DNA of 39,389 nucleotides, taken from sequence record MN067430; one strand, 5' to 3'. The position numbers and the translations under genes were made by a program. Origin of the DNA: Escherichia phage vB_EcoP-Ro103C3lw. The notes beneath the pieces were generated by a model. The model was not told the DNA's origin. It worked only from the letters and a program-made list of their open reading frames with translations, and searched no databases. This document shows, one piece after another, positions 2,139 to 38,482 of the stretch; the stretch's first letter is position 1, and each line of letters begins with the position of its first letter.

Positions 2139-2464
2139 TGAACAAGTCATACGGGATTAATCTGGTACACTCTATGGACGCAGACATGCAAATGTTAAGC
2201 CTACTGGCTACCGGGTATCGTCACGGAACGTCAAGTCACTCCGCACGTCAACAGCAGGAGAGGGACCGGGTACTGCAAGCAAGACTCCGGGCTGAGGGCC
2301 ATAAGTCCGAGCTGATGTGTCTGGCGTATGGTGGACGACCAATCACCGATGATGGTAAACTTCTGGTCTCAGGCTGGAAGGCGATAGACCAACGGTCAAC
2401 CATCAAGCACACGACTCATGGTGACTTCAGTCATCTCCACGCTAACCCGCTGATATGCAAGTAG
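2138..2464 (+). CDS. Hypothetical early protein, 108 aa
   Basis: ATG overlaps the upstream stop (TAATG); sits where T7 has gene 0.7 but is far shorter and has no recognisable kinase motifs. Confidence 0.5.
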   Translation: MNKSYGINLVHSMDADMQMLSLLATGYRHGTSSHSARQQQERDRVLQARLRAEGHKSELMCLAYGGRPITDDGKLLVSGWKAIDQRSTIKHTTHGDFSHLHANPLICK

Positions 2465-2469
2465 TAATT

Positions 2470-2492
2470 ATTAAACCCTCACTATAGGACTC
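2470..2492 (+). promoter_or_regulatory. Phage RNAP promoter, immediately upstream of the RNAP gene
   Basis: attaaaccctcactataggac; +1 G at 2487. Confidence 0.75.
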
Positions 2493-2560
2493 AAGGTCTA
2501 AGACTTCAGTTAAAGACCAAAGAGACTTAAGTGAAAGACTAACAAACAAGGACTTTAAGT

Positions 2561-5227
2561 ATGAGCGTCATTCAGCTTGAGAAGCATGACTTCTCGGACA
2601 TCTCCAACGCTATCGAGCCGTTTAACATTCTGGCTGACCACTACGGGCAGGACCTCGCAGTCAAACAGCTTCAGCTTGAGCATGAGGCATACACTGAAGG
2701 CGAGCGTCGTTTCATCAAGAATCTTGAGCGTCAGGCTGAGCGCGGGGGGCTGGCTGATAATCAGGTCGCAAGACCATTGATGCAAACTCTGGTCCCTAAA
2801 CTGGCGCAAGCCGTCAAGGAGTGGCACGAGACCCAAGGGTCAACCCGTGGGAAACCTCAGGTCGCCTTCCTGAAGCTGAGCACCGAGTCGAAACCTCGTG
2901 CGCTACTGGTCCAACCCGAGTCGGTGGCGGTCATCGTCCTGAAGATTGCGCTCAGTAAGCTGGTCAAGCCTGAAGGCGTACCGATAACGCCGATGGCCTC
3001 CGCGATTGGTCGCACACTGGAGGATGAAATCCGTTTCGGTCGCATCCGTGACCAAGAGCAAGAGCACTTCAAGAAGACCATCGCCGAGAACCTGAAGAAA
3101 CGCGCTGGCGTGGCCTACAAGAAAGCCTACATGCAAGCGGTCGAAGCCTCCATGCTGGACCAGAAGCAACTGGATGATGCGTGGGGGACTTGGAGTCCTG
3201 ACGAGGCGGTCCACGTAGGAATAAAGATGCTGGAGCTGCTGATTCAATCCACACAACTGGTAGAGCTGAAGCGACACAACGCTGGGAACGTAGCGTCAGA
3301 CGTCGAGATGGTCCACCTGTCAGACTTCTGGGCCAAGAAGATGGCTCAGCGAGGCTACAGCCTTGCGGGTATCGCTCCGGTCTACCAGCCGTGCGTCGTG
3401 CCTCCACGCCCTTGGAACTCAGTGGTCGGTGGTGGGTACTGGGCTAAAGGTCGCAGACCTCTCCCGCTGATGCGCTTAGGGTCGAAGGCTGCTATCGCTC
3501 GCTACGAGGAAGTTTACATGCCTGAAGTCTACGAGGCGGTGAACATCATTCAGCAGACACCGTGGAAGGTGAATAAGAAGGTGCTGGACGTAGTGAACAT
3601 GGTCGAGAAGCTGAACAATACGCCTATCGCAGACATCCCGCAGATGGACCCGATGAAGCCTGAGGAGTACGCAGGTGAGACCGAGGAAGAACTTAAAGCG
3701 TGGAAGAAAGCTGCTGCTGGAATCTATCGCCGCGAGAAGGCCCGACAGTCCCGCCGCTTGTCCCTGAGCTTCATCGTCGGACAGGCGAACAAGTTCTCTC
3801 AGTTCAAGGCCATCTGGTTCCCGTACAACATGGATTGGCGCGGTCGAGTCTACGCGGTCCCGATGTTCAACCCGCAAGGCAACGACATGCAGAAGGGTCT
3901 GCTGACTCTGTCAGTCGGCAAGCCAATCGGTGCGGACGGCTTCAAGTGGCTGAAGGTTCACGGTGCAAACTGCGCGGGTGTCGATAAAGTCACCTTCGAG
4001 GAGCGCATCAAGTGGGTCGAAGACAACCACGACAACATCCTCGCGGCTGCTAAGAGTCCGATGGATAGCATCGACTGGTGGGGCAAGTTAGACTCTCCGT
4101 TCTGCTTCCTCGCGTTCTGCTTCGAGTATGCCGGGGTCATGCACCACGGGCTGAGCTACTCCTGCTCACTGCCTATAGCGTTCGATGGGTCCTGCTCTGG
4201 GATTCAACACTTCAGCGCGATGCTCCGTGACCACGTTGGTGGACATGCGGTCAACCTAACGCCAAGCGGGAAGGTCCAAGACATCTACCGCATTGTGTCC
4301 GACCGGGTGGAAGAACAGCTTAAGGAACTACTGGTAAACGGTAGCGACAACGAAGTCAAGACCTTCGAGGACAAGAAGACAGGCGAAATTACTGAACGTC
4401 TGGTCCTTGGAACTCGTGAGCTGGCCCGTCAGTGGCTGACCTACGGGATGTCACGCACGGTCACTAAACGCTCGGTCATGACTCTGGCCTACGGGTCGAA
4501 GGAATACGGGTTCGCAGACCAAGTGTTTGAGGATACCGTGATGCCAGCGATTGACAACGGCAAGGGCGCGATGTTCACGGACCCAAGCCAAGCGTCCCGC
4601 TTCATGGCTAAGATGATTTGGGATGCAGTGAGCGTGACCGTAGTTGCTGCGGTAGACGCGATGAAGTGGCTCCAAGGCGCTGCTAAACTGCTGGCTGCTG
4701 AGGTCAAGGACAAGAAGACCAAAGAGGTCCTGAAGCCTTGCCTCCCGGTTCACTGGGTCACGCCTGATGGCTTCCCGGTCTGGCAGGAGTATCGCAAGAA
4801 GGACACCACACGTCTTGACCTGATGTTCCTCGGGACTTTCCGTCTCCAGCCGACAGTCAACAAGGGGTCGAGCAAGGAGCTGGACAAGCACAAGCAGGAG
4901 TCAGGCATCAGCCCGAACTTTGTACACTCACAAGACGGCAGTCACCTGAGGAAGACTGTGGTCCACACCCACCGCAAGTATGGCGTGATGTCCTTCGCAG
5001 TGATTCACGATAGCTTCGGGACCATCCCGGCTGACGCTGAGTTCCTGTTCAAAGGTGTCCGTGAGACGATGGTCGAGACCTACCGCGACAACGATGTGCT
5101 GCAAGACTTCTACGAGCAGTTCGCGGACCAGCTTCACGAGAGCCAGCGCGACAAGTTGCCTGAGCTTCCAAAGCGCGGTAAACTGAACATCGAAGACATT
5201 CTGTTATCTGACTTTGCATTCGCCTGA
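2561..5227 (+). CDS. gp1: Single-subunit DNA-directed RNA polymerase (T7 gp1 homolog)
   Basis: 888 aa; long conserved blocks versus T7 RNAP, e.g. WFPYNMDWRGRVYAVPMFNPQGNDM, HGANCAGVDKV, PIAFDGSCSGIQHFSAML, KRSVMTLAYGSKE, NFVHSQDGSHLRKTVV, ends SDFAFA. Confidence 0.97.
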   Translation: MSVIQLEKHDFSDISNAIEPFNILADHYGQDLAVKQLQLEHEAYTEGERRFIKNLERQAERGGLADNQVARPLMQTLVPKLAQAVKEWHETQGSTRGKPQVAFLKLSTESKPRALLVQPESVAVIVLKIALSKLVKPEGVPITPMASAIGRTLEDEIRFGRIRDQEQEHFKKTIAENLKKRAGVAYKKAYMQAVEASMLDQKQLDDAWGTWSPDEAVHVGIKMLELLIQSTQLVELKRHNAGNVASDVEMVHLSDFWAKKMAQRGYSLAGIAPVYQPCVVPPRPWNSVVGGGYWAKGRRPLPLMRLGSKAAIARYEEVYMPEVYEAVNIIQQTPWKVNKKVLDVVNMVEKLNNTPIADIPQMDPMKPEEYAGETEEELKAWKKAAAGIYRREKARQSRRLSLSFIVGQANKFSQFKAIWFPYNMDWRGRVYAVPMFNPQGNDMQKGLLTLSVGKPIGADGFKWLKVHGANCAGVDKVTFEERIKWVEDNHDNILAAAKSPMDSIDWWGKLDSPFCFLAFCFEYAGVMHHGLSYSCSLPIAFDGSCSGIQHFSAMLRDHVGGHAVNLTPSGKVQDIYRIVSDRVEEQLKELLVNGSDNEVKTFEDKKTGEITERLVLGTRELARQWLTYGMSRTVTKRSVMTLAYGSKEYGFADQVFEDTVMPAIDNGKGAMFTDPSQASRFMAKMIWDAVSVTVVAAVDAMKWLQGAAKLLAAEVKDKKTKEVLKPCLPVHWVTPDGFPVWQEYRKKDTTRLDLMFLGTFRLQPTVNKGSSKELDKHKQESGISPNFVHSQDGSHLRKTVVHTHRKYGVMSFAVIHDSFGTIPADAEFLFKGVRETMVETYRDNDVLQDFYEQFADQLHESQRDKLPELPKRGKLNIEDILLSDFAFA

Positions 5228-9912: not shown

Positions 9913-10133
9913 CCAAAGAAGTTCAGGTAGTCCGCAAGCGTCTGACCATCGACAAGATTCCGGTCGGCTATGCGTTCATCGTCCACGGTAAACCGGGCGA
10001 AGTGTACGTGAAGATTAGTAACTCTCACGTCTTCAACCACAAGTTACTTCAGATGCACACCACGGATTCCAACCGCTTCCAACGTCATCTGAATCTGGTC
10101 GCTGTAGAGCTGGTGGTGTACGATGGTGAGTAA
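9909..10133 (+). CDS. Hypothetical protein, 74 aa
   Basis: ATG overlaps the gp3 stop (ATGA); no homolog recognised. Confidence 0.5.
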   Translation: MTKEVQVVRKRLTIDKIPVGYAFIVHGKPGEVYVKISNSHVFNHKLLQMHTTDSNRFQRHLNLVAVELVVYDGE

Positions 10134-10581
10134 GGTACAGTTCAAACCACGTACAGTCACTGACGCAATCTTCGTCCACTGTAGTGCGACCCAACCGTCT
10201 CAGGACATCGGGGTAGACACTATCCGCATGTGGCACAAGCAGCAGGGCTGGCTGGACGTTGGCTACCACTTCGTCATCAAGCGAGATGGCACCGTGGAGT
10301 CTGGACGCCCGGTCGATGTAGTAGGGTCACACGTTAAGGATTGGAACTCCCGGTCCGTAGGCGTCTGCCTTGTAGGTGGAATCGACGCTAAGGGTAAGTT
10401 TGAAGCTAACTTCACTCCTGCTCAGATGAACGCCCTACGCAACAAGCTGGCTGAACTGAAGGTCCTGTACCCTCAGGCAGACATCAAGGCCCATCACGAT
10501 GTGGCACCAAAGGCTTGCCCAAGTTTTGACTTGCAGCGCTGGCTGAACACTAACGAAATGGTCACTTCCGACCGAGGCTAA
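10123..10581 (+). CDS. gp3.5: N-acetylmuramoyl-L-alanine amidase / lysozyme (T7 gp3.5 homolog)
   Basis: 152 aa; VQFK...DAIFVHCSAT..WH..QGWLDVGYHFVIKRDGTVE...GVCLVGGIDAKGKF.ANFTPAQM...HHDVAPKACPSFDL..W....E.VTSDRG nearly collinear with T7 lysozyme. Confidence 0.95.
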   Translation: MVSKVQFKPRTVTDAIFVHCSATQPSQDIGVDTIRMWHKQQGWLDVGYHFVIKRDGTVESGRPVDVVGSHVKDWNSRSVGVCLVGGIDAKGKFEANFTPAQMNALRNKLAELKVLYPQADIKAHHDVAPKACPSFDLQRWLNTNEMVTSDRG

Positions 10582-33240: not shown

Positions 33241-35331
33241 ATGGCTAATACCACTATTACGCAGTTCCCTACTGGGCAGACTCAGTACAAGATTAACTTT
33301 GACTATCTGGCCCGGACCTTCGTGGTGGTCACTTTAATCAACAGTGCTGACCAAGCGGACAACAAGGTCCTGACGGTAGGTAATGACTATCGGTTCATCA
33401 CTGCCACGACTATTGAGCTTCTGGCCGACCAGACGGGCTTCGATATTGTCCAGATTCACCGCTTCACGGGGACCGGACTTCTGGTCAGCTTCCGTGACGG
33501 CTCGGTCCTGACTGCCAACGACTTAACCACGTCCGAGCTTCAGGCTATCCATATCGCCGAGGAGGGCCGAGACCAGACTTCAGGTCTTGCCAAGCAGTAT
33601 GCGGACCAAGCGATTGCTGCTGGTACTGACGCTCAGTCTATCTTAGACAACATCATCAAGATGGGAAAGAACGGTTACACTCCAGTTGGCTCCTTTGAGG
33701 CCGGGGCGACCGTCAACCTTCAGAATGACGCTGTTCAGTTTGGCACTGGTGCTGCTATTACTCACTGGCGCTGGGAAGGCACACTACCTAAAGTCGTTCC
33801 ACCTAACTCGACACCAACGTCTACTGGTGGTATCGGTCACGGTAAGTGGATTGACGTAACGGACGCGACTCTGCGTGGTGCGCTGGCTCAACTGACTGGT
33901 GCCTCTCTGGTCATGACCTCTAACGGTAAGACCGTGGAGGAGCGCCTGTCTGGGACCTTACGTGTCGTGGACTCGGTGAAGGACTTGGAGTCGCTGGTTC
34001 CGCAGCAGGACGGTGAGATTGTCATCGCTCGTTGGGCTGCTTATCCGAAGCTGGTGGGCGTCAACTGTGGTCCGGTGGGCGGCGGTATGTTCATCGCCTA
34101 CAACGACAATCCGGCAGTCCCTAAAGATGGTGGCTTCTTTGTGGACAGTCCGTCTCCGACCCTTAAGTGGCGACGTATGGCTGAGAACACAGGCTATTAT
34201 CCGGTTGCTTGGTGGGGCGTAATTCCTGATCACTATACCGATAACGCTGACAACATCACTCGTGCGCACAACTTTGCGAAGCGAGCTTGGCGTGTTCTTC
34301 AGTACGACTTCGGTACATACCTGACGTCCAAGGCTGTTCCAATCTACAGTCGCATGGGCATCAAGGGGACCGGACGTGCTGACGGTACTGTCATTGCCAA
34401 GACCACGAACGATGCGTTCAACCTGCTCAAAGCTGACGGCACTGTAGGTGAGGCCGTGGATGCTCTGGCAGTAATGGTCCCTGATGCTTACGACCGAGCG
34501 TCTCCTTACATGGACAGCTTCTGTATCCACGGACGTATCGAGGACATTATGTTTAAACGTAATGGTCTCTCAGAGGCTAACTACAACACCATGCGTCCTC
34601 AGTATGGTCTGTTCATGAACAAGGGTGGCTCACCTGTCCTCAAGCATACCAACTTCGAGGGTGCGTATATCGGCATTCGAGCCTACGTGTGCTTCTCGTC
34701 AACCATCTCTGCGGTCGCCACAACCAACTGGCGCGGCAAGGGTTACGCTGGTCTTTATATTGAGGACTACCGTGATGGCAGCTTGATGTCTTCAGGCACG
34801 AGTAATGACATCCGTCTGTTCCAATCCCGAGGGTATCAGCATGGGGTAAGCATGTCCCGTATGCAGTACACCACGATGATCAACTGCTCTGTAGAGGAGT
34901 GCTTCAAGTCTCCGGGTGAAACTTACGCTTACGCCTATAAGTTCATCGACCCGTTCTCTATTCATCTCTCCACCTGCGCGACTGAGTTCGTTGAAGGCGG
35001 TCAGATTCAGATTACAGGCTTCGCTAACCCCGGATTCAGACCGTCCATCACTATCACCGAATACTTTGCGGTTGACCAGCAGAACCCTGCTACGGCCCAC
35101 AATATCATCGACATTGATAATGGTGGTGTTGCACGGTGTACGGTCAAGGTTATTGGTGGTGACTGGACGCATGACCCTCGCACACCTAACGTGGGTTCCC
35201 CTAGAGCTGCTGGTTCTGGGACTGTAGTCACTACTATCGGGACCACTGGCGCTGAAGGTCCTAACTGGCTGCTGAGCGGTGGTGCTAAAGTGGTTGACAT
35301 CGAGAACGCTACGAACACACGGAGTTCTTAA
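33241..35331 (+). CDS. gp17: Tail fibre protein (T7 gp17 homolog; N-terminal anchor conserved, C-terminal region divergent)
   Basis: 696 aa; N-terminal ~150 aa ([14 protein letters not shown]...VLT.GNDYRF...[12 protein letters not shown]...IHIAEEGRD) matches T7 gp17; the remaining ~550 aa show no T7-like similarity. Confidence 0.9.
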
Positions 35332-35371
35332 ACTTTGGGTCAAGGACGACCCGTTTAACAATGGAGGTATT

Positions 35372-35566
35372 ATGATTGAGTTCGACTTCAAGAATGAGGT
35401 CCTCAAAGCCTCGCCTATCGTCGGGACCGCTGCGGCTGATGGTGCCAGTCGGTTCTTCTTTGGGTTAACACTCAACGAATGGTTCTACGTCGCTGCCATC
35501 GCGTACACCGTGGTGCAGATTGGCGTCCTAATTTACAAGACGATTAAGAGCGGAGGTAAGACATGA
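35372..35566 (+). CDS. gp17.5: Class II holin (T7 gp17.5 homolog)
   Basis: 64 aa from ATG 35372 (SD ggaggt); KASPIVGTAAADGASRFFFGLTLNEWFYVAAIAYTVVQIG is near-identical to the T7 holin. Confidence 0.9.
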   Translation: MIEFDFKNEVLKASPIVGTAAADGASRFFFGLTLNEWFYVAAIAYTVVQIGVLIYKTIKSGGKT

Positions 35567-35826
35567 CGCAGATGGACTTAGAGAAGTTCCTGTTAATGCT
35601 GGACACCGAACGTGCTCGACTAATGCTGCAAGACCTGCGGGATGACTCTAAGCGTTCGCCCCAGCTCTACAACTCCATCGAGAAGCTGCTGGCCCGTCAC
35701 AACTTTGTGTTAAGCAAGGTGTCGGTGGACGAGAAGCAGTTGGCAGACATGGAGGCGCTGAACCGAGAGTACGACAAGGTTCTCTCAGCGACCGAGGATA
35801 ATGACACCGGGTATGGTGTCCAGTAA
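35563..35826 (+). CDS. gp18: Terminase small subunit (T7 gp18 homolog)
   Basis: 87 aa; F.LMLDT..A..ML.DL.D..RSPQLYN.I.KLL.RH.F matches T7 gp18; ATG overlaps the holin stop (ATGA). Confidence 0.88.
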   Translation: MTQMDLEKFLLMLDTERARLMLQDLRDDSKRSPQLYNSIEKLLARHNFVLSKVSVDEKQLADMEALNREYDKVLSATEDNDTGYGVQ

Positions 35827-35882
35827 GTGTTAGACTCAAGGTCATCTATTGGTGGCCTTTATGATTAACACTAGGAGGTGGT

Positions 35883-36254
35883 ATGGTATCGGAAGATGTT
35901 ATAAAGGCTAACGTTCAAGCTGCTCGTAAATTACGAGAGGAACGGGAGGAACGAAGAAAGAGGACTAAGCGCATTTCGCAGATAAAGAGCCTATATGGTC
36001 TCACGCTTGAACAGTTCGAGGACCTGATGGACTCGGTGGGAAGCTCATGCGAGATTTACAAGACTCCGCTTAAAGTAGGTGGGAAGAAAGGAGATACAGA
36101 CTCTGCGTGTATTGACCACTGTCATTCCACTGGGGTGATTAGAGGGGTTTTATGCCGCAAGTGCAATGCAGCAATTGGCGCACTGGGAGATACTACATCT
36201 AGTGTCCAGCGGGCTGTTTCATACCTAGAGAAGACGCTTGTACGTCGATTCTGA
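35883..36254 (+). CDS. Endonuclease VII-family protein (recombination endonuclease VII-like zinc/HNH-type nuclease)
   Basis: 123 aa; SLYGLTLEQFEDLM....SCEIY..........CIDHCHSTGVIRGVLCRKCNAAIGALGD fits the Endonuclease_7 family pattern (YG.T.E.Y......C..C.....DH.H.TG..RG.LC..CN...G); SD aggagg; no gene at this position in T7. Confidence 0.75.
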   Translation: MVSEDVIKANVQAARKLREEREERRKRTKRISQIKSLYGLTLEQFEDLMDSVGSSCEIYKTPLKVGGKKGDTDSACIDHCHSTGVIRGVLCRKCNAAIGALGDTTSSVQRAVSYLEKTLVRRF

Positions 36255-36272
36255 GAAATGAGGAGGGCAACT

Positions 36273-36722
36273 ATGCTCAAACTTTTACGACAGGCCGTTC
36301 CTTGGCTGGTGGCGGGACTCCTGTTCTGCTCAGGTTACTGGGTGGCAGACAATAAGTGGGAGGCGAAAGTAAGCAATGAGTACATCACGAAACTTGAGGC
36401 ACGAGAGAATCAACGGGCTGCTGTCCAAGGTGAAATCGACAAAGTGTCAGCCGAGTGGCAAGACAAGATGTCCGCGCTGGAAGGCTCTACTGATAGGATT
36501 ATTGCTGACCTTAACCGCGATAACAAGCGGCTGCGCATCCGTGTCAAACCCACCAGTGGAACAGTCCAGACTGACGGTCGATGCGTCATTGATGGTTACG
36601 CCGAACTTGACGAACGAGATGCTAAGCGTCTTATCACCATCGGACTGAAAGGTGACGAATGGATTAAGGCCCTCCAGAAGACCGTGAGAGCCATGCAGCA
36701 AGAGAAGGAGGTGAAACCTTGA
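36273..36722 (+). CDS. gp18.5: i-spanin (Rz-like, T7 gp18.5 homolog)
   Basis: [19 protein letters not shown]-terminal TM helix; [42 protein letters not shown]...[10 protein letters not shown] match T7 gp18.5; ATG 36273 with SD gaggagg. Confidence 0.88.
36376..36648 (+). CDS. gp18.7: o-spanin (Rz1-like, T7 gp18.7 homolog), embedded in the +1 frame of the i-spanin gene
   Basis: [23 protein letters not shown]: lipoprotein signal with lipobox Cys; SVDASLMV.PNLT.EML.V matches T7 gp18.7. Confidence 0.85.
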   Translation: MSTSRNLRHERINGLLSKVKSTKCQPSGKTRCPRWKALLIGLLLTLTAITSGCASVSNPPVEQSRLTVDASLMVTPNLTNEMLSVLSPSD

Positions 36723-38482
36723 GTCAAGACTTAGCGGCGCGTCAGGCGCTTATGACTGCCCGTATGAAGGCAGACTTCGTGTTCTTCCTGTTCGTCCTGT
36801 GGAAAGCTCTGTCCCTCCCGGTCCCGACTCGCTGTCAGATTGACATGGCGAAGAAACTATCGGCTGGGGACAACAGGCGTTTCATCCTACAGGCGTTCCG
36901 TGGTATCGGGAAGTCCTTCATTACGTGTGCCTTCGTGGTCTGGAAGCTGTGGAATAACCCGGACTTGAAGTTCATGATTGTGTCGGCCTCAAAGGAACGT
37001 GCTGACGCTAACTCCATCTTCATCAAGCGAATCATCGACCTGATGCCTCAGCTCCAAGAGTTGAAGCCTAAGCAGGGCCAGCGAGACGCTGTAATCAGCT
37101 TTGACGTAGGGCCAGCCAAGCCAGACCACTCACCTTCGGTTAAGTCCGTGGGTATCACTGGTCAGCTTACTGGTAGCCGTGCGGACATCCTGATTGCCGA
37201 TGACGTGGAGGTTCCGGGTAACTCAGCGACTCAGGCTGCGAGAGACCGACTGTCCGAGCTGGTAAAAGAGTTCGACGCAATCCTGAAGCCGGGCGGTACG
37301 GTTATCTATCTGGGTACTCCTCAGACCGAGATGACCTTGTATCGTCAGCTTGAGGGTCGCGGCTACTCTACGACTATCTGGCCTGCCCGGTATCCACGCG
37401 ATGAGAAGGACTGGAAGTCTTACGGAGACCGTCTGGCTCCGATGCTTCAGGCTGAGCTTGAGTCCGACCCTGAGGGCTACTACTGGCTCCCAACGGATGA
37501 GGTGCGCTTTGATGACGAGGACCTGAAGGAACGTGAGTTGTCCTACGGTAAGGCTGGCTTCGCTCTCCAGTTCATGCTCAACCCTAACCTAGGGGATGCT
37601 GAGAAGTACCCGCTGAAGCTCCGTGACCTTATCGTAGCGGACTTGGACCCTGAGTCCAGCCCTATGGTCTACCAGTGGCTCCCGAACCTCCAGAACAAGC
37701 GGGATGACGTTCCTAACGTGGGACTCATGGGTGACACCTACCACACGTATCAAACTGTAGGTTCTGCTTTCAGTTCGTACACCCAGAAGATTCTGGTCAT
37801 TGACCCTAGTGGTCGTGGTAAGGATGAGACGGGCTATGCGGTACTGTATCAGCTCAACGGCTACATCTTCGTGATGGAAGCTGGTGGTATGCGCGGTGGC
37901 TATGAGGACTCTACGCTGGAAGCTCTGGCGAAGATTGGGCGCAAGTGGAAGATTAACGAGTACGTCATTGAGGGTAACTTCGGTGATGGTATGTACCTCG
38001 AACTATTCAAGCCTGTAGCGGCCCGTATCCACCCGGCAGCAGTGACCGAGGTCAAGAGCAAGGGTCAGAAGGAACTACGCATCTGCGACGTTCTGGAGCC
38101 TATCATGGGGTCTCACCGACTCATCGTGAATGCTTCAACCATTGTGTCTGACTACCAGACAGCCTCTGATAAGGATGGCGTCCGTAACCCTATCTACTCT
38201 CTGTTCTACCAGATGACCCGTATCAGCCGTGAACGTGGAGCCTTGGCACACGATGACCGACTTGATGCGCTGGCTATCGGTGTACAGTTCTTCGTAGAGT
38301 CTATGGCTAAGGATGCCGTGAAGGGCCAGCGTGAAGTCACCGAGGAGTGGCTGGAGGAGCAGATGGAAGACCCGAAGAAAGGCTTTAAGTCCATCGAGAC
38401 GGACTACTGGGACAATGGGGTACGAGTCCAGTTCAATACAGATGATGACTTGGGCTTAGGGTCCTACGTTCAGTTCCACTAG
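36719..38482 (+). CDS. gp19: Terminase large subunit (T7 gp19 homolog)
   Basis: 587 aa; [120 protein letters not shown]; apparent TTG start after SD aaggaggtg. Confidence 0.96.

Follow-up and report, generated by a model that had tools for sequence, protein, structure and literature searches.

An embedded two-component spanin of the T7 type in Escherichia phage vB_EcoP-Ro103C3lw and the probable start codon of its o-spanin

Introduction

Genes 18.5 and 18.7 of phage T7 lie one within the other in different reading frames, an arrangement familiar since the sequencing of the T7 genome and recognized as a spanin since 2007. Here, we describe the homologous locus of Escherichia phage vB_EcoP-Ro103C3lw, a Kayfunavirus, using a stretch of 39,389 nucleotides (nt) from the sequence record MN067430, which we call the window. 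In this locus, the gene of a predicted inner-membrane spanin subunit (i-spanin) encloses the entire gene of a predicted outer-membrane lipoprotein subunit (o-spanin). An embedded spanin pair of this type is already known and is annotated in near-identical phages, and the locus adds nothing new on lysis biology, with K1F-type phages already present in the 2018 spanin census. What is mildly new is the comparative evidence that the start codon that gives the o-spanin a long leader is selected, which bears on an inconsistency of annotation and not on mechanism.

The Rz/Rz1 pair of phage lambda has the same embedded +1 architecture, consisting of a type II inner-membrane protein and a small outer-membrane lipoprotein, and it is likewise presumed to act through a complex that spans the periplasm and then through fusion of the membranes (Kongari et al., 2018, PMC6139136). 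The sequence similarity of the present pair to Rz/Rz1 is marginal, however; cysteines occur in both lambda subunits but only in the i-spanin here, and the signal peptide of Rz1 has about 19 amino acids (aa), whereas that of the present o-spanin would have 52. The spanins LysB/LysC of P2 (overlapped genes), PseT.3/PseT.2 of T4 (separated genes), and gp11 of T1 (unimolecular) serve the same last step of Gram-negative lysis (Kongari et al., 2018), but they differ from the present locus in gene arrangement, have no detectable sequence relationship to it, and none of these arrangements applies here.

Much closer is the T7 pair gp18.5/gp18.7. In both phages, the inner gene is nested in the +1 frame, with its ATG 103 nt (our phage) or 115 nt (T7) downstream of the start of the outer gene, the pair is located after gene 18 and before gene 19, and GGAGG with an ATG start, a lipobox, a VD.SLM motif, an i-spanin with a single periplasmic cysteine, and a mature o-spanin without any (beyond the lipidated residue) are shared. 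The two loci differ in the lipobox (TISG↓C in T7, ITSG↓C here), in the length of the o-spanin precursor (83 aa in T7, 90 aa here), in the distance of the Shine-Dalgarno (SD) sequence from the start codon (6 nt in T7, 12 nt here), and in the junction to gene 19, which is a 21-nt gap in T7 and an overlap of stop codon and TTG start here; in addition, an endonuclease VII-family gene separates gene 18 from the 18.5 homologue in our phage. For K1F, which is also a Kayfunavirus-type phage, and for its relatives, SpaninDB gives embedded pairs ('emb') that belong to the T7 family of i-spanins (39 members) and the K11 family of o-spanins (Kongari et al., 2018), in line with a preceding sequence-only reading of our locus, which had called the arrangement an established one of T7. 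Unlike here, the K1F o-spanin starts 148 nt into the outer gene and has 75 aa, and K1F-type loci share 61–70% nucleotide identity with our locus in the N-terminal half and 83–90% in the C-terminal half.

The same nested pair is annotated in the records of T7, BIS33, and fPS-9, and also in Pisces (CPT_Pisces_046/047), which belongs to the same genus. Over positions 35500..37000, the window shares 98.1% identity with Escherichia phage vB_EcoP-U8 and 97.6% with Pisces, both of which are T7-like Kayfunavirus members (Autographiviridae, Studiervirinae). The i-spanins of Pisces and our phage are 96% identical, and the inner frame is identical over all 90 aa, but the Pisces record begins the o-spanin at a downstream GTG and thus deposits only the C-terminal 72 aa of that frame, with the note 'Contains lipobox predicted by LipoP'.

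Results and discussion

Both nested frames match T7 spanin families

The region very probably codes for an embedded spanin of two components, of the same type as T7 18.5/18.7. PHROG 1327 (Rz-like spanin; 1.6e-58, residues 1–147) was matched by the product of the outer gene, and a tblastn search matched 1159 phage records, among them T7 gene 18.5 with 51.6% identity at 99% coverage (3e-39); the homologous coding sequence is named i-spanin in the Pisces and BIS33 records. The product of the inner frame matched the Pfam family PF17531 (O_Spanin_T7) with 76.6 bits (cut-off 25; 1.5e-21) over model positions 1–58 of 59, as well as phrog_4306 (PHROG 4306, Rz-like spanin; 3.1e-36), and it is 53% identical to T7 18.7. 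As the inner gene ends 74 nt ahead of the outer stop codon, it is fully embedded. The sequence-only reading had placed it wholly inside the i-spanin gene in the +1 frame, and this geometry, the PF17531 match, and the conservation described below all agree with that placement.

For the comparison, we used 28 related loci in addition to the present one, with i-spanin identities of 30–100%: 18 IMG/VR contigs and the loci of Pisces, U8, T7, BIS33, fPS-9, KPP-5, an Erwinia phage, a Providencia phage, and two Pseudomonas phages. In 29/29 loci, even at an i-spanin identity of 30%, the +1 frame is open over 83–122 codons, and in every one of them it contains the lipobox cysteine and, 14–16 residues further on, the motif VD[APS]SLM. 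The +2 frame is open for at most 43 codons in all 29 loci, and the antisense frames vary in open length from 44 to 138 codons among the relatives.

Codon-position entropies were calculated from the 26 distinct sequences and are given in bits for positions 1/2/3 of the outer frame. Both non-overlapping segments have the ordinary pattern of a single frame, with 0.74/0.55/1.03 before and 0.73/0.53/1.18 after the overlap. In the hydrophobic region (h-region) and lipobox of the o-spanin, both frames are frozen, and all three codon positions are nearly invariant (0.40/0.20/0.47). In the mature o-spanin (0.85/0.56/0.64), the inner-frame wobble is the most variable position, as outer position 1 with 0.85 exceeds outer position 3 with 0.64, and this indicates purifying selection on the inner frame.

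It could be argued that the +1 frame is an untranslated chance opening and that the outer protein functions alone or with an unlinked partner. The length of the frame by itself would permit this: when the outer protein was kept fixed and its codons were resampled synonymously, +1 runs of at least 91 codons arose in 5.7% of cases with the codon usage of the genome and in 7.7% when the gene's own codons were permuted, and the antisense frame that is codon-aligned with the i-spanin gene is likewise open for 91 codons. We therefore rejected ORF (open reading frame) length as support for the o-spanin gene, which is weak evidence given that 6–8% of resamplings reach it by chance and that the antisense frame matches it. 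The closest relative, vB_EcoP-U8, also has no annotation of the inner gene. Against this stand the Pfam and PHROG matches far above threshold, the open frame, lipobox, and VD[APS]SLM motif in all 29 loci, and the codon-position pattern that is inverted across the mature o-spanin; the antisense ORFs, by contrast, have no family matches and an unsteady open length. At the sequence level, the Pfam match, the conservation, and the codon-position pattern lie far beyond chance and exclude it for the inner frame, and we consider the chance explanation extremely improbable.

The antisense ORFs were also considered as genes in their own right (84, 59, 43, and 52 aa) and rejected, as they have no PHROG matches and their open length is not conserved. 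The 84-aa ORF begins with TTG and occupies 36447..36701 (− strand) within the 91-codon open frame 36447..36722; it has no family matches, and it illustrates how easily long alternative-frame ORFs arise in an i-spanin gene.

Features of the two products

The maximal outer ORF begins further upstream at ATG 36258, but we take ATG 36273 as the i-spanin start because the SD sequence GAGGAGGG ends 5 nt upstream of it and because this position aligns with residue 1 of all relatives; the Pisces record annotates the equivalent of this sequence as the ribosome-binding site of the i-spanin. The single predicted transmembrane segment (Table 1) is preceded by K3 and R6, with a net charge of +2 ahead of it, and the positive-inside rule thus predicts a type II inner-membrane protein with an N-in/C-out topology. 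An AlphaFold2 model calculated from the single sequence without an alignment served for the gross architecture alone. It contains a helix from residue 5 to 86 that includes the transmembrane segment, with predicted local distance difference test (pLDDT) scores of 80–93 for residues 31–70, a linker (residues 87–113, pLDDT <50), and two helices at residues 114–122 and 128–147 (pLDDT 50–67). The modeled layout of transmembrane helix, long helix, linker, and C-terminal helices would match the Rz type. For the K1F i-spanin, the published tables give 64% helix and no Pepcoil coiled coil (Kongari et al., 2018). Cys104 (36582..36584) is the only periplasmic cysteine of the i-spanin, and the equivalent position is kept in 29/29 loci; it would be available for a predicted homotypic disulfide in an i-spanin homodimer.

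A different possibility is that the outer protein is a unimolecular spanin resembling T1 gp11, or a peptidase, and not one half of a two-component system. Many deposited relatives are indeed named 'endopeptidase Rz', but 'endopeptidase' is a historical label of Rz that is older than the spanin model, and the outer protein matched no peptidase family. A unimolecular spanin is hard to reconcile with a protein that has an N-terminal transmembrane segment and neither a lipobox nor a C-terminal transmembrane segment, and whose putative lipoprotein partner is encoded within its own gene. We give this possibility hardly any credence and continue to regard the locus as a two-component spanin.

The candidate signal peptide of the o-spanin has an h-region of 13 hydrophobic residues (mean Kyte-Doolittle value 2.58), followed by the lipobox that the sequence-only reading had already recognized by its cysteine (ITSGC). 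That recognition holds up: the cysteine is Cys53, and the site fits the permissive PROSITE-type core pattern. ITSG is also among the published o-spanin lipoboxes, in the entry on CR44b (Kongari et al., 2018). The residue at position +2 is Ala here and A, G, Q, T, or K, but never Asp, across the 29 loci, and as Ala at +2 is no inner-membrane retention signal, sorting of the o-spanin to the outer membrane is predicted. Further downstream, the 18–21 bases that encode the most conserved o-spanin motif, VDASLM, also encode the i-spanin motif GRCVIDG, and it is the o-spanin motif that is the better conserved of the two.

None of the observations contradicts the assignment, but some fit it less smoothly. 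The i-spanin reached only 17.8 bits (E 0.004) with the Pfam family PF03245 (Phage_lysis, lambda Rz), which is under the cut-off of 25.4 bits; the pair would therefore function like Rz/Rz1 but belong to the T7 families. The confidence of the AlphaFold2 model is low to moderate, with a mean pLDDT of 64 and values <50 for residues 86–114. Finally, Thr at position −3 of the lipobox is outside the strict consensus [LVI][ASTVI][GAS]C that is quoted in the spanin literature (PMC6139136).

The start codon of the o-spanin

As judged from the comparison of related loci, ATG 36376 is probably the main start codon of the o-spanin. The GGGAGG ahead of it would form a duplex of −10.2 kcal/mol with the anti-SD sequence, and GGAGG is found 6–12 nt upstream of the homologous start in 27/29 loci, with GGAG in one more (L018). 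In 25/25 T7-type enterobacterial loci, an ATG lies 48–53 codons before the lipobox cysteine behind GGAGG (GGAG in L018), with duplex energies of −7.3 to −13 kcal/mol. An ATG is also found in the divergent Providencia locus (L026), at a distance of 42 codons from the cysteine and with a weak SD (−5.3), and the two Pseudomonas phages have a GTG start 39 codons before it, behind GGAGG. We do not regard the conservation of the SD sequence as a sign of selection, as resampling showed that the sequence of the outer protein largely accounts for it (P 0.6–0.77).

The start codon itself is more informative. An ATG at 36376 demands that Asn35 of the outer frame be encoded by AAT, and the long genes of the genome use AAT 58 times versus 276 times for AAC. 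Synonymous resampling gave a probability of about 0.17 per lineage for the ATG, which is nevertheless kept in 11/11 diverged lineages (product 10^-8.2), and the 22–36 codons between start codon and h-region are stop-free in 13/13 representative lineages, with chances of 0.12–0.86 per lineage (product 10^-5.4); both products assume independent lineages, an assumption that holds only approximately.

The region between start and h-region, which forms an N-terminal extension of the o-spanin, is open without being constrained as a protein: its outer-frame wobble entropy of 1.005 is the same as in the non-overlapping parts. Its high positive charge (Table 1) was considered as a sign of selection and rejected, because the outer protein yields an equal charge in the +1 frame by default.

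Two further points count against ATG 36376. The spacing of 12 nt between SD and ATG is long, and with this start, Cys53 would lie much further from the N-terminus than is typical of a lipoprotein, behind a signal peptide of 52 residues. It is this distance that led some curators to trim the o-spanin start, and Kongari et al. (2018) had already commented on the unusually long signal peptide in their supplement. The same embedded o-spanin could instead be translated from GTG 36430 as a 72-aa protein, the upstream ATG being non-functional. This start is used in the Pisces record, annotated by the Center for Phage Technology, and the SpaninDB curators treated T7-like phages in the same way; the missing protein-level constraint on residues 1–35 and the long SD spacing of the ATG would also fit. 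Yet GTG 36430 has no SD sequence (−2.5 kcal/mol, compared with −10.2 for the ATG), and it is not conserved even in close relatives, as it is missing in L004, L009, L015, L016, L018, and other loci. Between the upstream ATG and the h-region, no ATG, GTG, or TTG whatsoever is present in L018 and L025, and in other loci the downstream candidates vary by clade and are without an SD. Nor would a downstream start account for an upstream ATG that is held in every diverged lineage by means of a rare codon, or for the frame that is held open from there to the h-region. Translation from GTG 36430 is thus unlikely, and the most economical reading of the sequences is that the long leader behind ATG 36376 is genuine but tolerant of sequence change.

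Extending this to the group, we lean moderately toward the view that T7-like o-spanins are translated from a conserved upstream ATG with an exceptionally long signal peptide (48–53 aa in the enterobacterial phages), whose first 31–36 residues drift and yet stay open. If this is true, the N-terminus is wrong in curated spanin sets and in several GenBank records, where the start has been trimmed for better LipoP scores. The long basic leader might then adjust how fast or at what time the o-spanin is exported, or it may instead merely mark the sole site in the i-spanin gene that is able to host a start.

Table 1. Positions of the spanin pair, of its sequence elements, and of associated lysis and packaging genes in the window (aa, amino acids; nt, nucleotides; SD, Shine-Dalgarno)
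Feature	Position	Strand	Remarks
i-spanin gene (T7 gene 18.5 homologue)	36273..36722	+	149 aa, ATG to TGA
i-spanin SD, GAGGAGGG	36260..36267	+	5 nt before ATG 36273; read directly
i-spanin N-terminal transmembrane segment, residues 8–24	36294..36344	+	best 17-residue Kyte-Doolittle window, mean 1.56; predicted
o-spanin SD, GGGAGG	36358..36363	+	in i-spanin codons W29-E30-A31; 12 nt before ATG 36376
o-spanin gene (T7 gene 18.7 homologue)	36376..36648	+	90-aa precursor, ATG to TGA, +1 frame
o-spanin N-terminal extension, residues 1–35	36376..36480	+	net charge +8; open, not constrained as protein
Alternative GTG start of the o-spanin	36430..36432	+	72 aa, Cys at position 35; Pisces annotation, 157 nt from i-spanin start
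o-spanin signal-peptide core (K36, h-region, lipobox ITSG↓C)	36481..36534	+	PROSITE-type lipobox core pattern; predicted
o-spanin lipobox ITSGC, residues 49–53	36520..36534	+	Cys53 codon TGC 36532..36534
Mature o-spanin (predicted)	36532..36645	+	38 aa; Ala at +2, no Cys beyond the lipidated one
VDASLM, most conserved o-spanin motif	36577..36594	+	same bases encode i-spanin GRCVIDG containing Cys104
Class II holin gene (T7 gene 17.5 homologue)	35372..35566	+	first of late lysis cluster; PF10746 1.8e-21, phrog_920 8.6e-26
Endolysin gene, N-acetylmuramoyl-L-alanine amidase (T7 gene 3.5 homologue)	10123..10581	+	PF01510 Amidase_2 2.8e-16
Large terminase gene (gene 19)	36719..38482	+	PF22530/PF03237 terminase
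TTGA overlap, TTG start of large terminase on i-spanin stop	36719..36722	+	same 4-nt overlap annotated in Pisces

Proposed course of lysis and annotation of the locus

The present comparison shows that both frames are under selection, that the products are homologous to T7 gp18.5 and gp18.7 and carry the expected signal and lipobox features, and that the cysteine and the ATG are conserved. Lipidation, sorting, complex formation, and membrane fusion are proposed from knowledge of the family, namely the work on lambda Rz/Rz1 and the spanin literature (Kongari et al., 2018; Summer et al., 2007, as cited in PMC8365609). By this analogy, the outer gene product would be an inner-membrane protein with one N-terminal transmembrane helix, a mostly helical periplasmic domain, and the single Cys104. 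The o-spanin would be translated independently from its own ATG behind GGGAGG inside the outer coding sequence, exported, lipidated on Cys53, cut by signal peptidase II to leave a mature lipoprotein of 38 residues, and directed to the outer membrane. Across the periplasm, the two proteins are expected to bind each other through their C-terminal parts, and once the holin and the amidase have destroyed the murein, the spanin complex would disrupt the outer membrane, most probably by the route proposed for lambda Rz/Rz1, a fusion of the outer with the inner membrane.

Dual coding is seen here in clear, textbook form. Two single-base changes that are silent in the outer gene can each be predicted from the sequence to knock out the inner one. 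T36377C leaves Asn35 of the i-spanin unchanged (AAT to AAC) and converts the o-spanin ATG into ACG, and G36533C leaves Leu87 unchanged (CTG to CTC) and results in the o-spanin exchange Cys53Ser. Embedded o-spanin genes are still routinely overlooked in annotation, and their start codon is annotated inconsistently. In the record of vB_EcoP-U8 (L002, MT862763.1), where the homologous outer gene is at 2274..2723, both the i-spanin and the holin are named 'hypothetical protein' and the o-spanin is omitted; many other records carry the legacy name 'endopeptidase Rz' and do not include the embedded gene.

A mosaic junction within the overlap

The spanin locus is a mosaic, as seen in a comparison of our phage with L010 and L015–L019. 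The junction is in the nearly invariant, doubly constrained segment 36480..36550 (i-spanin codons about 70–92), which includes the h-region and the lipobox of the o-spanin. Our phage and L017 share 93–99% nucleotide identity through codon 92, and 57% and 47% thereafter. Similarly, the identity of L010 and L019 falls from 97–98% to 58%, and in the opposite direction, that of L017 and L019 rises from 65–69% to 94–98%. There are thus two N-terminal and two C-terminal modules, and all four combinations are found. The mature o-spanin always moves with the i-spanin C-terminal domain that it should bind, because both are encoded by the same DNA.

Neighbouring genes and further observations

The order of genes around the pair is tail fibre, holin, small terminase (PF11123), endonuclease VII-family gene, nested pair, and large terminase. 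The sequence-only reading had also named a class II holin and an amidase as parts of the lysis set, and both were recovered by family matches (Table 1). The holin start was set by analogy with the 195-nt Pisces coding sequence (64 aa). The longest holin ORF begins at GTG 35279 and extends to 35566 (+ strand, 95 aa), overlapping the end of the tail-fibre gene (33241..35331); this long form is probably an artefact of ORF finding, because the Pfam match covers only its residues 36–87 and the Pisces holin has 64 aa. The amidase gene adjoins that of endonuclease I (PF05367, 1.3e-80), which is the gene order of T7. T7 is the only phage whose amidase is known to inhibit RNA polymerase.

At the other end of the pair, the last i-spanin codons contain GGAGGTG, the SD sequence of the large terminase gene, and the Pisces record likewise annotates a ribosome-binding site in the 3' end of the i-spanin gene. 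Together with the TTGA overlap, this suggests translational coupling.

The NCBIfam scan of both spanins and the nuclease gave no matches, and a sequence search against the PDB gave one match at E 0.2 for the i-spanin and none for the o-spanin, hence nothing meaningful and no solved structure. Scans of 35200..36900 for sigma-70 promoters and intrinsic terminators were near the expectation from shuffled sequences, with none positioned to matter.

The endonuclease VII-family gene (35883..36254, + strand, 123 aa; PF02945, 3.5e-18) has its own SD and encodes DHCH and CRKCN motifs. It follows the small terminase gene and precedes the spanin pair, in an insertion at about 35870..36235. The gene is present in vB_EcoP-U8, where it is named 'hypothetical', and is missing in Pisces and most close relatives, which have about 15–20 nt at this site; because of this absence, it looks like an insertion of a free-standing homing-type endonuclease. 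Nucleases are found at other sites nearby in relatives, namely after the spanins in fPS-9 and, as an HNH gene, in the same region of MII_004. In the intergenic region between gene 18 and the endonuclease gene, a predicted stem-loop at 35826..35872 (+ strand; −19.3 kcal/mol, z −2.4) is kept in Pisces with a longer stem, and its position presumably matches that of the T7 RNase III site R18.5.

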